In this document: piece by piece, positions 27,499 through 38,444 of the stretch
How positions within the stretch are numbered: the stretch's first letter is position 1
Layout of the letters: the number at the start of each line of letters is the position of its first letter
Assembly (NCBI RefSeq): GCF_044324785.1
Contig: NZ_CP172127.1
Source of the DNA: Escherichia coli
GTDB taxonomy: Bacteria; Pseudomonadota; Gammaproteobacteria; Enterobacterales; Enterobacteriaceae
DNA length: 64,000 nucleotides
Direction: 5' to 3' (one strand)
Notes under the pieces: generated by a model
The model's database searches: none
What the model was told of the DNA's origin: nothing
What the model saw: the letters and a program-made list of their open reading frames with translations, nothing else
Position numbers and translations under genes: made by a program

Positions 27499-27713
27499 CA
27501 GATTGCATCAAAATTAGGTTGTTCTTCTTCGGCTATCTGCGCGGGTCTGGCTCCGGACAGCGCGGCGTTTACATGCGTCCACGTGACGCGAGGTCGCCCG
27601 TCGCGGCGTTTTACATAAGAGATCCCGGCACGGGTCAGGGCACCGCATTGTTTTGACGGGAACTGGTAACCGGTCAGTTCAACCAGTTCCTGGTCTGTTA
27701 GCAGGTCGTTCAT
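27498..27713 (-). CDS. excisionase-like protein
   Basis: 71-aa ORF, stop overlapping int start; small basic protein in canonical xis position. Confidence 0.6.
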   Translation of the reverse strand: MNDLLTDQELVELTGYQFPSKQCGALTRAGISYVKRRDGRPRVTWTHVNAALSGARPAQIAEEEQPNFDAI

Positions 27714-30914: not shown

Positions 30915-31235
30915 TTAGTAGGGGATTTCATCAGTATCTGGCGTGTATTCGATGCAAAGTAACTGCTGGATTTTGTCATCGATAGCAGCAATACGCTGTT
31001 GGGCGTCGGCGACTGTTTTCTGTTTTTGTTCACGCAGCTGCTCGACCTGTAAACCGATGATGTCGATTGGCTGGGGCTGGTTGACGGTAATTTCAATTTC
31101 GCGGCTTTCCAGAAGGATGTACCTGTCTGGAAAATTTTTTGACATATCAACCGTCGCAATAAGCAGCTTTTCATGGCTGAAAGTTGAAGTTGCATAATGA
31201 ATAAAGAGTGTTACTGGGATGGTGCGCGCTTCCAT
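30915..31235 (-). CDS. hypothetical phage early protein
   Basis: 106-aa ORF with AAGGAG RBS. Confidence 0.5.
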   Translation of the reverse strand: MEARTIPVTLFIHYATSTFSHEKLLIATVDMSKNFPDRYILLESREIEITVNQPQPIDIIGLQVEQLREQKQKTVADAQQRIAAIDDKIQQLLCIEYTPDTDEIPY

Positions 31236-32078
31236 AGCGACTCCTTGGTGATGTATACTCGGGACCGATCAGCGAATATTGATCAGCTTCCATAGCGTCA
31301 GTGTCGTTGGTCTTTCCTCATCACAAGTTTGGTCACTTGTGATAAATCCGAATGGTTTGGTCGCCGTTCGGGGTAACTGGCCCGCCTTGTGCGGGTCTTT
31401 TGCTATCTAAAGGGTGCCGGTTACGTTTCCGGCGTCGTTATGTTTCCATCACGACCGTACGGGGCTGGTCTTTCCTGTTTTGAGCTGGTCAGGCTCATGG
31501 TCAACGCTGGTCAGGCGTGGTACTTCCTCCGGTCTTTCCCTGGTGTCACGCTGCGGGTTTGGCCTCTCCTGTTGGGGACTCAGGCACAGCGATAAAACCT
31601 GGCTGTGTGAAAAAATGGCCCATCGTGCGGACTGGGCAAAGACTAAACACAGCAAATTGATGATGGGCGCCCGGAATCGAACCGGGTAACGGGCAGGGAG
31701 TTCCCGTTAAACACCTGTTCACCACAACCGGGAGCGCACTCCGCCATTTCAAAATTTAACGACAAAGCTCAAAGTTGAGTCGATGAAGTGCGCTCTCGTG
31801 TTGTAGCCAGGACTCTTCCCTGGTGGTCACACCGTATCGCCTTGATGGTGAATCAATCGCTCATACCTGGCTGTGGCTTGCACATTCCGGCTACCTGCTA
31901 TGGAGACAACGCGTTAAGGCTCCGCTTCCATCCAGACCGCTTCGACACATGTGCCATATGCCGGTGAAGTCTTTCCCTCTGTCATCGTGCTGTCGGCGAC
32001 CCGAAGAATGCTCCGGGATGTTTATCCACGCCCGGTCGTGCTACCTTTTATGTCCTCACAACAAAAAAGGATATTTTC

Positions 32079-32297
32079 ATGTCAGAGATAGCCGAACTTA
32101 AAGAAGAATTAGCTAAAGTTAGAGCTGAATTACATACCCACAAGGCATTGCTCTTAACCATTCTTCGTGATCTTCCTCCTCAAAAAGATAAATTTCTCTT
32201 GAGAATTGGAGCGTCCGTTAACGATCTGAACCGCCCAGATATTCAGGAGTTAGGCACACTCATTCAATTTTTGCGGTTGCTAAATAACCGCAAATAG
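32079..32297 (+). CDS. hypothetical small protein (AT-rich gene convergent with the gene downstream of the repressor)
   Basis: 72-aa ORF with AAGGAT RBS; helical heptad-like N-terminus. Confidence 0.35.
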   Translation: MSEIAELKEELAKVRAELHTHKALLLTILRDLPPQKDKFLLRIGASVNDLNRPDIQELGTLIQFLRLLNNRK

Positions 32298-32634
32298 CAT
32301 CAACATTAAGCCGGGTGCCGTCATGTTTATTGGCGGCATCAGTAGCTATTTGTAATATTTTTCTGACGTCATCAATACTTGTTCCCCGGGTTGTTTCGCA
32401 CAGACTTTTGTCAATTGCGCAGAAAACTTCAAAAACTCCCGTAGCCAATTTTTCCCGTTCATCTGCTTTCAGAGTGATGACCGGAGAATATAGCGTAGTA
32501 AAGGCTTCTCTGATTTCCTGCGCCATAGCTACTGGTGATTTTGTTTCGCAAAGCTGGGTGCTGAACTGCATCCGGTCACTCAGTAGATGAGCGGCGATCA
32601 CCTGAATTTGTTGCGGTAAAGATTTAAATTCCAT
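32260..32634 (-). CDS. hypothetical protein encoded directly downstream of the repressor (rex-like position)
   Basis: 124 aa from MEFKSLPQQ with AGGAG RBS. Confidence 0.45.
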   Translation of the reverse strand: MEFKSLPQQIQVIAAHLLSDRMQFSTQLCETKSPVAMAQEIREAFTTLYSPVITLKADEREKLATGVFEVFCAIDKSLCETTRGTSIDDVRKILQIATDAANKHDGTRLNVDAICGYLATAKIE

Positions 32635-32737
32635 CGTTTGGTACTCCTGACACACTGGTCTGGGTTGCCCTTATCGCCGGGTAGCGGAACGTGTTTCTGA
32701 ACAACTGCCGCTGGGTAAGCGTTGTTGATGAAAGCGA

Positions 32738-32762
32738 CTTTACAATTTGTATTTGTAATGGT
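32738..32762. promoter_or_regulatory. operator-like site sharing the ATTTGTAAT half-site of the cI/cro operators
   Basis: TTACAATTTGTATTTGTAATG repeats the 9-mer found twice in the 33333..33371 operator region. Confidence 0.4.
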
Positions 32763-32884
32763 CAATGTATTTTTAAAAAATAATTTGTAGTTAGGGGCAA
32801 AAAAATATTCACTGTGTAAAGGTGTTTTTGTGTTAGGGGGAAAGTTGCATGCCAGCAGCGGCTGGCCTGGAAATTTGAACTGAA

Positions 32885-33313
32885 CTATTTTGTCTGGTTT
32901 TTGGCTTCAAGTAGTTCTTTTAGCAGTAGATCGAAGTGCTCTCTTTTTTCTTTTAGCTCATTGATTAGTTTATTTTTTTCGCTCTCAGGCAGTCCTCTGA
33001 ATAGTTGCAGTAGAGCCTGTTCTTGTGGGGTTAGTTCTTGATTGTAATTACCGGGGTGTAGCGTGGATTCATCCAAATATTCTCCTTCATTCATGAAGAA
33101 AAAATGAACAGGGTATCCGGTCACTTTTGCTAGCTTGTCTAATTTATCTTTTCTTGGCGTTACCCCATTACACCATGCCTGAACTGATTGAGCTGTAACC
33201 CCAATATGGCGAGCTAACTCAGATTGAGACCAGCCTAAGTCTTTTAGAATCCGTTGTAGTCGGCTAGCAAAAGCCATGTTTTTCGTTTTTGTGTTCATAC
33301 CGTAAGGATACAA
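32885..33313 (-). CDS. prophage repressor (XRE-family HTH, cI-like, no S24 peptidase domain); start uncertain (TTG 33313, ATG 33298 or 33277)
   Basis: HTH motif GWSQSELARHIGVTAQSVQAWCNG; divergent from Cro-like gene. Confidence 0.75.
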   Translation of the reverse strand: MYPYGMNTKTKNMAFASRLQRILKDLGWSQSELARHIGVTAQSVQAWCNGVTPRKDKLDKLAKVTGYPVHFFFMNEGEYLDESTLHPGNYNQELTPQEQALLQLFRGLPESEKNKLINELKEKREHFDLLLKELLEAKNQTK

Positions 33314-33396
33314 GGTTTAATTGTAGGGAGCATTGCAAATATAATTTGTAATTACAGTTATGATTTGTAATGATGGCGCGGACACAAGGAGTCCAT
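33314..33396. promoter_or_regulatory. divergent promoter/operator region with two inverted-repeat operators
   Basis: ATTGCAAAT-ATA-ATTTGTAAT and ATTACAGTT-ATG-ATTTGTAAT inverted repeats between divergent regulator genes. Confidence 0.6.
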
Positions 33397-33627
33397 ATGG
33401 ATAAACAACTGCAAGACAAAATTCTTTCCGTAATGAGTCAATCAGAGTTAGGTCGGCGATTAGGGAAAAAACCACAAACTGTGAGCCTCTGGTTCAAAGG
33501 ACGGGTTCCCGGTGAAGAGGTTTTGCGCACATCTGAAGCTCTTGAATGGCGCGTGACCCCTCATGATCTTAGACCGGATCTTTACCCAAACCCAGATGAC
33601 AGCTTGCCTAAAACGGAAGCAGCTTAA
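33397..33627 (+). CDS. Cro/YdaS-like HTH regulator
   Basis: 76 aa from MDKQLQDKIL with AAGGAG RBS; HTH-like SQSELGRRLGKKPQTVSLW. Confidence 0.7.
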   Translation: MDKQLQDKILSVMSQSELGRRLGKKPQTVSLWFKGRVPGEEVLRTSEALEWRVTPHDLRPDLYPNPDDSLPKTEAA

Positions 33628-33685: not shown

Positions 33686-34162
33686 ATGGAAAACCCAGAG
33701 GAATTACAAAAAGAGATTTTGACCTGGGCGGCAAGGGCAGGGCAGGAACTCGTCACGATTGAAATCTGCCGGGCCTGGTTCAGTCAGGGACGCAATGATG
33801 AGTTGAGACTACATGAATTTGAGGACGCGGACGGCAACGTGGACTGGAGAGCCATCAACAACAATCGGCAGAAAATCTTTCGCTGGTTACGTGGCGAGAC
33901 AACGGCGGCGCGCCGAAAAACTCAGGTGCTGGCCAGTGTGATGAAAGCCGTGCTACCCGCAGAACGGCGTGCGCGTCTGGAGTCGCCGGGCGATCCTGTT
34001 TTGCTGGCAACGCTGGCGGCAAAAGAAGGGGTGGAAGCGATTAACGCTGTACATCTCCACTTCGCGCCAGAGATAACTATTCAGGAAATTGACGAAGCAA
34101 TAGCGGCGCTGGTAGCGACGCGAGGGGCAGTGATAAGCACTGCGCAAGGCCATCATGCATGA
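33686..34162 (+). CDS. YdaT-like protein (CII functional analogue family)
   Basis: 158 aa; NNRQKIFRWLRGETTAARRKTQVL...LPAERRARL resembles Rac YdaT. Confidence 0.65.
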   Translation: MENPEELQKEILTWAARAGQELVTIEICRAWFSQGRNDELRLHEFEDADGNVDWRAINNNRQKIFRWLRGETTAARRKTQVLASVMKAVLPAERRARLESPGDPVLLATLAAKEGVEAINAVHLHFAPEITIQEIDEAIAALVATRGAVISTAQGHHA

Positions 34163-34201
34163 GCGCCTGACCAGCGTTTAACTTATACCGAGGAAAGACC
34201 G

Positions 34202-38220: not shown

Positions 38221-38444
38221 ATTGACTTAGAAAAAGCCCGGGGCTATAGTTTCCGCGCAGCCGCAAAATCGGTTGCCGGGATTGGCGTCCCGGATATCTA
38301 AGTGACGCATAGCCGCGTTAGCGGTTTTTTTATGTGTTAGGCACGGCCACATTCGCATTATGGTGGGCTGTGTGGGGGCTTCTGCGGAAGCGCCGGGTTC
38401 ACTTAGCCGGTTACGCCAACCCTGCACAGTTCACCACCAGATGA

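Follow-up and report, generated by a model that had tools for sequence, protein, structure and literature searches.

A covarying RNA domain and an RprA-like 3' module in a gene-free segment of a lambdoid prophage of Escherichia coli

We analysed a stretch of 64,000 nucleotides (nt) from Escherichia coli (contig NZ_CP172127.1, assembly GCF_044324785.1; hereafter the window), which carries a lambdoid prophage with Rac-like immunity. Its leftward operon on the minus strand includes a gene of 131 amino acids (aa), the segment studied here (31236–32078), a 106-aa gene (31235–30915), and a 737-aa exonuclease-family gene; the features of the region are collected in Table 1. An initial annotation had described the segment as poor in open reading frames (ORFs) and highly structured, and had suggested a regulatory RNA or a tRNA-like structure. 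The longest ORFs within it were 91–92 aa on the plus strand, with GTG starts, and 68 aa on the minus strand. The region was found in 473 of 5426 complete E. coli genomes at 93–99% identity with no RefSeq gene inside, and the RefSeq annotation of a 98% identical copy has no coding sequence (CDS) from the 106-aa gene to the 72-aa gene of the neighbouring insertion. Insertions and deletions relative to a 72% identical homologue were mostly not multiples of three. On these grounds we agree that the segment holds no credible gene. Its bounds need one correction: the rightmost 69 nt (32010–32078) are part of a two-gene insertion that most relatives do not have, and not of the conserved RNA.

A megablast search against the phage collection gave no match, and relatives came only from low-identity blastn. 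This low-stringency search of phage genomes revealed the 72% identical collinear homologue in phages BUCT708 and BUCT709. The part 31792–31963 alone matched unannotated gaps in very different phages, namely Uetakeviruses (SPN1S, PAT1, and Tyrion), the P1-like D6 and SJ46, and several Klebsiella phages. A self-comparison for internal duplication gave short matches only.

Homologues of this part, termed the core, included 63 representatives mutually less than 88% identical, and 27 diverse ones (the window copy included) were used for an alignment and for covariance model R1. RNAalifold predicted 31 pairs in the alignment, 15 of them with compensatory changes. With two pseudoknots included, 96.9% of the cells were paired and 16 of the 38 pairs carried double changes; none of 500 shuffles reached this, and slid controls were 30–40% paired. 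For pseudoknot 2, an AACC:GGUU variant of CACC:GGUG occurs. The 3' side of candidate pseudoknot 1 was fixed by the search pattern, and the covariation evidence bears on the other helices. Since G–U pairs were frequent in the minus-strand orientation, the core RNA was assigned to the minus strand of the window. R1 detected a single copy in the window, at 31800–31963 (−), with 141.9 bits (E 1.7e-42, model positions 1–159). In Rfam searches of the window and eight phage loci at gathering and permissive thresholds, no family matched the core or the box region described below. The whole segment folded better than shuffled sequence (z = −3.9 on the plus strand and −2.7 on the minus strand), and its description as highly structured is borne out moderately by thermodynamics and strongly by covariation.

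An invariant 19-mer of the core occurred in more than 120 IMG/VR viral contigs and in 24 species representatives, comprising 22 Enterobacterales and two contigs of metagenome-assembled genomes labelled Bacillota and Lachnospiraceae; these two (L173 and L186) are very short and probably binning contaminants from enterobacterial phages. By blastn, the core was present in 684 of 5426 complete E. coli genomes, in 218 of them on P1-like plasmids. It was at least 99% identical in 447 E. coli records and 100% identical in 25 matches listed from across the ranking, and the annotation of the Prokaryotic Genome Annotation Pipeline (PGAP) beneath it was 'none' in the listed matches. All its contexts were phage or prophage. 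A covariation-supported RNA of 160 nt is thus unannotated in ~13% of complete E. coli genomes, although phages of E. coli, Salmonella, and Klebsiella are among the best studied, and the core family appears to be undescribed so far. In several loci the core lay directly downstream of a good promoter, and in L068 and L117 it was a stand-alone gene, with TTGACA-18-TACATT, a short leader, the core, and a terminator. A same-strand tRNA adjoined the core in 33 of 131 loci and an opposite-strand tRNA in none: tRNA-Arg(UCU) lay 165–470 nt downstream in 29 loci and a CAU-anticodon tRNA upstream in four. A boxA beside the core in some loci was rejected, as GCUCUUUAACAA there belongs to the terminator and 3' end of a convergent gene.

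Three Uetakeviruses (L003, L006, and L007) have an unannotated gap of ~0.6–1.1 kb that reaches from the terminase to the portal genes and is transcribed divergently from the head genes. The gap starts at a promoter with the palindrome ATTACCTTTTAGGTAAT, which may be an operator, and contains the core, several further conserved hairpin modules, and sometimes tRNA-Arg(UCU). Phage Tyrion (L007 1447–1511) additionally showed an int-alpA RNA match above threshold (44 bits vs 35.8), and sub-threshold STnc100-like matches were seen near tciA in the P1-like D6 and SJ46 (L004 3509–3629 and L010 3491–3610).

Covariance-model scans had been proposed as a check of the initial annotation. ARAGORN and Rfam at gathering thresholds reported nothing inside the segment, and at permissive thresholds the only notable match was a partial one on the minus strand to RF00034 (RprA), with 37.4 bits (E 0.012). 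This is below the 70 bits required at the gathering threshold for the full three-hairpin model, and the 5' part aligned poorly. Positions 31608–31660 (−) aligned to the last 46–48 nt of K-12 RprA with ~85% identity, loop bases included. RprAproc, the last 47 nt of RprA, is a functional product of processing in E. coli; it is present alongside full-length RprA and by itself regulates narP (PMC9262595). As in this conserved 3' domain, UUGCUGUGUGUAGUCUUUGCCC is followed by a terminator, here a GC-rich hairpin (31632–31618, −) and then CAUUUUUU. The stem was replaced in relatives with pairing kept, and in L290 the RprA terminator hairpin was unchanged. More than 120 viral contigs carried the seed UUGCUGUGUGUAGUCUU, followed downstream by 84 distinct sequences; most of these were a GC hairpin and a U-run, with unrelated stems. 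Upstream, the module was joined to the long hairpin, to a GUGGUG...CACCAC hairpin, or to the tRNA-like element; because of these recurring partners, we regard it as the usual 3' end of these modular phage RNAs. Literature searches gave no description of a phage RprA-like RNA or of this motif, and the phage-borne RprA-end module appears to be undescribed so far. The suggestion of a regulatory RNA is therefore upheld by a covarying minus-strand domain together with a 3' module of small RNA (sRNA) type, homologous to RprA and ending in an intrinsic terminator.

Many phage copies carried ACACAGC(AA), the complement of the seed start, after the terminator. At many loci (e.g., L223, and 31602–31655 of the window), the seed is one arm, and the sequence after the U-run the other arm, of an inverted repeat (UUGCUGUGU ... 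ACACAGCAA) flanking the terminator. On transcripts that extend past the terminator, this repeat could mask the seed or provide a site for RNase III. Pairing of the seed with the GGAAAGAC boxes was also considered; the complementarity of 6–7 nt was too short to count as evidence.

Table 1 Features of the segment and its surroundings in the window.
Feature	Position	Strand	Details
CII/YdaT-like gene	33686–34162	+	right of segment
Cro/YdaS-like gene	33370–33627	+	right of segment
cI-like repressor	32885–33313	−	right of segment
OL operator repeats	32740–32760, 32776–32793		match OR operators at 33337–33372 (cI–cro gap)
PL-like promoter, TTGACC-17-TAAAGT	32737–32765	−	sigma-70-like; overlaps OL operator repeats
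Two-gene insertion, 677 nt	32010–32686		131-aa gene (−) and 72-aa gene (+), convergent, overlapping; absent from most relatives
Conserved PL-leader segment CAUUCUUCGGGUCGCCGACAGCACGAUGAC	31981–32010	−	in most cassette variant types of the lineage
Hairpin GAGG-GAAAGA-CUUC	31966–31979	−	GGAAAGAC box as loop; marks left junction of core cassette
Core structured RNA domain, ~160 nt, pseudoknotted	31800–31963	−	covariance model, covariation
Core elements			P1 (CGGCAU-AUGGCACAU-GUGUCG), P2, hairpin with UUCACCA loop, hairpin with GAAGAGU loop
Core candidate pseudoknots			1, GCACAU:AUGUGC; 2, CACC:GGUG
Long hairpin	31725–31803	−	CAAC + CGAGAGCGCACU paired with AGUGCGCUCCCG + GUUG; variable apical part, conserved GUCGUUAAAU
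tRNA-like element, 64 nt	31661–31724	−	4-bp acceptor-like stem GGUG:CGCC and two arms
Second arm of tRNA-like element	31688–31708	−	6 bp, 9-nt loop
T-arm CCCGG-UUCGAUU-CCGGG	31670–31686	−	5-bp stem, UUCGAUU loop
RprA(proc)-like module	31608–31660	−	seed UUGCUGUGUUUAGUCUU (31639–31655), then terminator
Intrinsic terminator	31610–31637	−	GCCCAGUCCGCACGAUGGGCC + U6; also found by terminator scan
CACACAGC	31602–31609	−	directly after U-run; complementary to 5' part of seed
Stack of junction motifs	31467–31571	−	Shine–Dalgarno (SD)-like boxes and CUGACCA-loop hairpins, no genes between
SD-like boxes of stack	31561–31571, 31531–31542, 31467–31477	−	CAGGAGAGGCC, CAGGGAAAGACC, CAGGAAAGACC
CUGACCA-loop hairpins of stack	31504–31520, 31482–31496	−	CCACGCCUGACCAGCGU, GAGCCUGACCAGCUC
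Conserved GC hairpin GACCCGC-ACAAG-GCGGGCC	31379–31397		terminator-like on plus strand (U-run 31398–31401)
Hairpin H3, CCGAA/UUCGG	31348–31371	−	loop containing GACCAAAC; stem CCGGG/CCCGG in a relative
Hairpin H2 (9-bp palindrome)	31320–31343	−	loop GACCAA
GAGGAAAGACC box	31309–31319	−	identical to ribosome-binding junction boxes before real genes
Upstream ORF, 40 codons	31171–31293	−	putative; spans the 106-aa gene start (31235) in a different frame; positional counterpart in relatives

The long hairpin and the tRNA-like element lie between the core and the RprA-like module. The long hairpin recurs as a module in many phages, and the core-to-tRNA interval elsewhere holds CAAC...GAGAGC and GCUCUC...GUUG with variable inserts. 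The T-arm-like sequence that had been pointed out, GGTTCGATTCC, is present exactly at 31673–31683 (−), within the perfect hairpin CCCGG-TTCGATT-CCGGG. The identity as a tRNA gene was rejected: ARAGORN called none in the segment (only tRNA-Asn and tRNA-Ser elsewhere in the window), and the best match of the Rfam tRNA clan there was tRNA-Sec, with 19.3 bits against the 47 needed. The element has no 7-bp acceptor stem, 3' CCA, D-arm, or 7-nt anticodon loop, the T-arm being its sole typical tRNA feature.

The tRNA-like element occupies the position at which the 29 related loci carry their same-strand tRNA-Arg(UCU), and BUCT708-type relatives have a simple hairpin in its place. Together with the rejection by ARAGORN and Rfam, this would fit a decaying mobile tRNA-Arg(UCU) cassette, in which the block of core, hairpin, and tRNA-like element lost its tRNA and is passively carried. 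We consider such decay quite improbable. Between the window and L167, the T-arm stem changed from CCCGG/CCGGG to UCCGG/CCGGA, the second arm from ACGGG/CCCGU to AGCUGG/CCAGCU, and the acceptor-like stem from GGUG:CGCC to GGUG:CACC. Because all three helices show compensatory changes, the element seems to be a maintained structure and not a dead gene, and the near-identity of the core among E. coli genomes given above likewise speaks against decay. The suggested tRNA-like structure is thus supported as a minus-strand element with a conserved T-arm, second arm, and short acceptor-like stem. The segment as a whole is a chain of separable cassettes and not a single RNA.

This modularity became apparent from 40 further viral contigs, which were collected by a shared 23-mer from the far end of the segment and compared with the window. 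Some relatives had no core, hairpin, or tRNA-like parts, and their leader abutted the RprA-like seed; others had the core without the RprA-like part and the box stack; L167 was without the core only. Since the core, the tRNA-like part, and the RprA part are absent independently of one another, the modules behave as independent cassettes, which favours accessory trans-acting roles and argues against the core as the antiterminator of the operon.

An antitermination role would mean that the core or the GAAAGA-loop hairpins, as analogues of boxB, make RNA polymerase resist Rho and the terminator at 31610–31637, like HK022 put or lambda nut, with no function in trans. The core is promoter-proximal in BUCT708-type relatives and many other phages, an intrinsic terminator stands between PL and the recombination genes, and long untranslated transcripts need protection from Rho. 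Like lambda nutL and HK022 putL, the region is structured RNA close to the promoter, placed after PL and before the first terminator in the early-left operon of a lambdoid phage, and its hairpins have GAAA-rich loops; the position of the core in relatives fits HK022 put. The loops GAAAGA, GAAGAGU, and GAAAA seem to resemble the loops GAAAA and GAAGA of lambda boxB. Even so, this explanation seems rather unlikely to us. In close relatives (types B, C, and F), which have no core, the same terminator and the genes beyond it are still present, the stand-alone cores of L068 and L117 are followed directly by a terminator, and the rightward operon has no second copy of the core. Unlike the lambda and HK022 sites, the core is dispensable in close relatives; no boxA consensus was seen in the leader, and no ORF bearing an arginine-rich motif, as expected of an N-like protein, was found in 26–42 kb.

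Beyond the terminator, 31236–31607 contains boxes and hairpins of another kind. The recurring TGGTCTTTCC boxes of the initial annotation are present, exactly at 31308–31317 and 31466–31475 and as the variants CGGTCTTTCC at 31530–31539 and AAGTCTTTCC at 31969–31978; they are not, however, specific to the region. Their reverse complement, GGAAAGACC, occurred in seven copies in the 64 kb against 0.45 expected, each on the sense strand of the local operon. TGGTCTTTCC is the reverse complement of GAGGAAAGACC(N)AUG, the standard ribosome-binding junction box of this phage, and GAGGAAAGACC precedes, as an identical 11-nt box, the real gene starts at 27711, 30884, 34203, and 36635, in both early operons. 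A second junction motif, (CCA)CGCCUGACCAGCGU, folds into a hairpin of 4 bp whose loop is CUGACCA. The copies at 34163 and 36600 include the stop codon of the gene before them, and two further copies lie inside the segment. As these boxes and hairpins match those of real gene junctions, the segment holds several junction motifs without genes between them. The GAGGAAAGACC boxes are often preceded by a CUGACCA-loop hairpin that holds the UGA stop of the previous gene, and this unusually uniform junction suggests a common translational control. A reading of the boxes as an origin with iterons was rejected, as the boxes all follow the sense strand of their operons and stand directly before start codons.

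The 9-bp-arm palindrome reported in this part, ATCACAAGT-TTGGTC-ACTTGTGAT, is exact at 31320–31343 and is the sole match in the window, against 0.02 expected by chance. In the corresponding hairpin H2, at least five entirely different stems occur among relatives while the loop remains GACCA(A/G), and the neighbouring H3 also covaries. GACCA occurred seven times in 205 nt, compared with ~1 per kb per strand elsewhere. The 23 nt in and just downstream of the GC hairpin on the RNA strand (CCGCACAAGGCGGGCCAGTTACC) were identical in 40 viral contigs. The region was also compared with CsrB/RsmZ-type sponges: it has 5–6 (A/G)GGAAAG boxes and seven GACCA motifs, and no Rfam match to CsrB or CsrC. Rho utilisation was considered and set aside, the C-over-G skew being only modest. 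The GC hairpin (31379–31403, +) has a U-run on the plus strand only, and could end an antisense transcript starting near the 5' end of the 106-aa gene; the promoter scan found no plus-strand promoter for such a transcript.

This part above all might instead consist of DNA-level remnants, with the GGAAAGACC and CCUGACCAGCGU boxes as linkers at module borders, where lambdoid phages recombine, and the stack left behind when genes between junctions were deleted, without an RNA function of its own. The identity of the boxes to real-gene junctions in both early operons, the differences among relatives by whole cassettes swapped at boxes, and the range of 2 to 54 codons in the mini-ORFs after the boxes are in line with this. 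Plain deletion scars are, however, disfavoured, because the box stack retains ~90% identity to the 72% identical homologue although blastn no longer detects similarity in the genes that flank it in these phages, because GACCA is enriched, and because the pairing of H2 and H3 survives complete stem replacement with constant loops. Moreover, a deletion between two boxes would remove boxes rather than stack them, and the core, tRNA-like, and RprA-like parts would be left unexplained. We therefore judge an origin as debris to be unlikely, though it keeps some weight.

Small proteins were considered as another product, encoded by a 37-aa ORF of BUCT708, by the 40-codon upstream ORF, or by the 91–92-aa plus-strand ORFs. 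In BUCT708, a CDS of 37 aa is annotated behind a GGAAAGACC-A-AUG box, and the upstream ORF (31171–31293) has a positional counterpart in relatives. The ORFs after the boxes, as read from the sequences, range from 2 to 54 codons among relatives, and in the window an in-frame TAA interrupts the BUCT708-type ORF after three codons, which makes a protein product unlikely. PGAP annotates nothing here. The initial annotation had named conserved small ORFs as the finding that would speak against an RNA; what we found were varying ORF lengths, out-of-frame indels, and substitutions that track base-pairing and not codons. Encoded small proteins are accordingly hardly credible as an explanation of the segment.

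Upstream of the segment, operator-like repeats are common to the cI–cro gap and 32740–32793, and the minus-strand promoter at 32765–32737 was therefore identified as PL. Most relatives (type A, e.g., L090, L140, and L148) join the PL leader (32730–32687) directly to position 32009, from which we conclude that 32010–32686 is an insertion. Its genes (32079–32655) belong to PHROGs of unknown function, and in other relatives this position is taken by different inserts. In BUCT708, a TTGACG-17-TAAATT motif was read from the aligned sequence ~110 nt upstream of the core. BUCT708 (L002, OM816834.1) and BUCT709 (OM816835.1) are described as 'Stenotrophomonas' phages and are collinear with enterobacterial prophages over integrase, Gp157, exonuclease, the RNA region, and cI/cro; because of this collinearity and the 72% identical leader, their host assignment looks doubtful.

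Here, we propose, with a probability of roughly one half for the explanation as a whole, that the segment is the untranslated, promoter-proximal part of the leftward early (PL) operon, a noncoding leader of exchangeable cassettes that yields stable RNAs from the minus strand. From 5' to 3', the order of modules is the conserved leader, the core, the long hairpin, the tRNA-like element, and the RprA-like end with its terminator. Most PL transcripts would end at the 31610 terminator as a stable noncoding RNA. The tRNA-like element may serve as a processing signal for RNase P or RNase E, which would free a ~50-nt Hfq-type sRNA like RprAproc, with host or phage mRNAs as its targets in trans. The core would be a separate, stable, trans-acting accessory RNA, found elsewhere as a stand-alone gene or at the head of tRNA-Arg(UCU) transcripts. 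The 370 nt beyond the terminator would form an untranslated read-through leader, in which the GACCA-loop hairpins and GGAAAGACC boxes probably control either how the recombination genes are translated or the read-through that reaches them.

Several points weigh against this proposal. Thermodynamically, the minus strand stands out no more than the plus strand. The 677-nt insertion, with its convergent plus-strand gene, lies between PL and the segment and may lower or alter transcription, and the promoter scan found no separate minus-strand promoter adjoining the segment. The invariance of the RprA-like seed across viral contigs was partly forced by the exact search pattern; the seed was also intact in loci gathered through other patterns. 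Complementary matches to the seed within the window were at chance level, with no convincing target among them, and no result points to what the core domain does. The comparisons establish the modules with their strand, the covariation, the independent occurrence of the modules in relatives, the homology to RprA, and the terminator signature, whereas the 5' and 3' ends, termination, processing, Hfq binding, action in trans, and targets given above are inferred.

Comparison with known systems places the modules as follows. Like RprA and RprAproc, the 3' module has UUGCUGUGU(G/U)UAGUCUUUGCCC, after which come a GC hairpin and a U-run. It differs in that the first two-thirds of RprA, with the main seed hairpin, are missing, in its fusion to other modules under a phage promoter instead of the Rcs-controlled rprA promoter, and in terminator stems that vary among phages. 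Prophage-encoded Hfq-type and 3'-end-derived sRNAs (DicF, IsrK, the anti-sRNAs AgvB and AsxR, and the CpxQ type) share with it an origin in an early prophage operon, an intrinsic terminator end, and a seed copying a host regulator, whereas here the seed corresponds to RprA, and the module is joined to structured cargo RNAs and spread over more than 120 viral contigs of several phage types. The tRNA-like element recalls the tRNA-like domains of YrlA/Y RNA-like RNAs and tmRNA as well as tRNA-punctuated processing (3'ETS-leuZ and mascRNA), in that a small RNA is immediately preceded by a canonical T-arm stacked on a short acceptor-like stem. Unlike in these, the D-arm, the 7-nt anticodon loop, and CCA are missing and RNase P processing is only predicted; YrlA and tmRNA gave no Rfam match in the segment even at E<=10.

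The core shares with GOLLD and ROOL a phage-borne, large, and modular build with many helices and pseudoknots, a frequent position by tRNA genes, and a patchy accessory distribution. In contrast, its hosts are Enterobacterales instead of Firmicutes or rumen and lake bacteria, and its conserved domain is only ~160 nt, although full transcripts of Uetakeviruses approach 1 kb. The Rfam models of GOLLD and ROOL gave no match in the segment at E<=10 or in the eight phage loci at E<=0.5. The repeated linkage of the core to tRNA-Arg(UCU) and tRNA-like elements recalls GOLLD and ROOL, here in a family residing in genetically tractable hosts. A bolder and more tentative idea, which we hold possible rather than probable, is that the core represents a new class of autonomous pseudoknotted phage RNA with tRNA-Arg(UCU) or tRNA-like cargo, acting in trans on a host machine (e.g., tRNA-related or anti-defence), and that through the portable RprA-end module hundreds of phages mimic processed RprA, tapping or blocking the Rcs/RpoS envelope-stress network. 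A phage-borne copy of the processed RprA domain suggests that temperate phages imitate a host envelope-stress sRNA; if true, this would be a new route of phage–host cross-talk and could alter the interpretation of RprA targets in lysogens. The GGAAAGACC and GACCA junction motifs, for their part, point to shared translation control across the early operons.

Other RNAs were noted elsewhere in the window. Far from the prophage early region, an EFASI RNA (2851–2978, −; 100.8 bits) and a C4 antisense RNA (4413–4501, −; 62.2 bits) point to a second mobile element at the left end. The prophage studied here carries in its rightward part (38244–38441, +) a tandem array of c4-a1b1 target sites, the isrK Hfq-binding RNA (80.4 bits), and a C4 antisense RNA (74.5 bits), which is an immI-like RNA switch of P1/P7 type.

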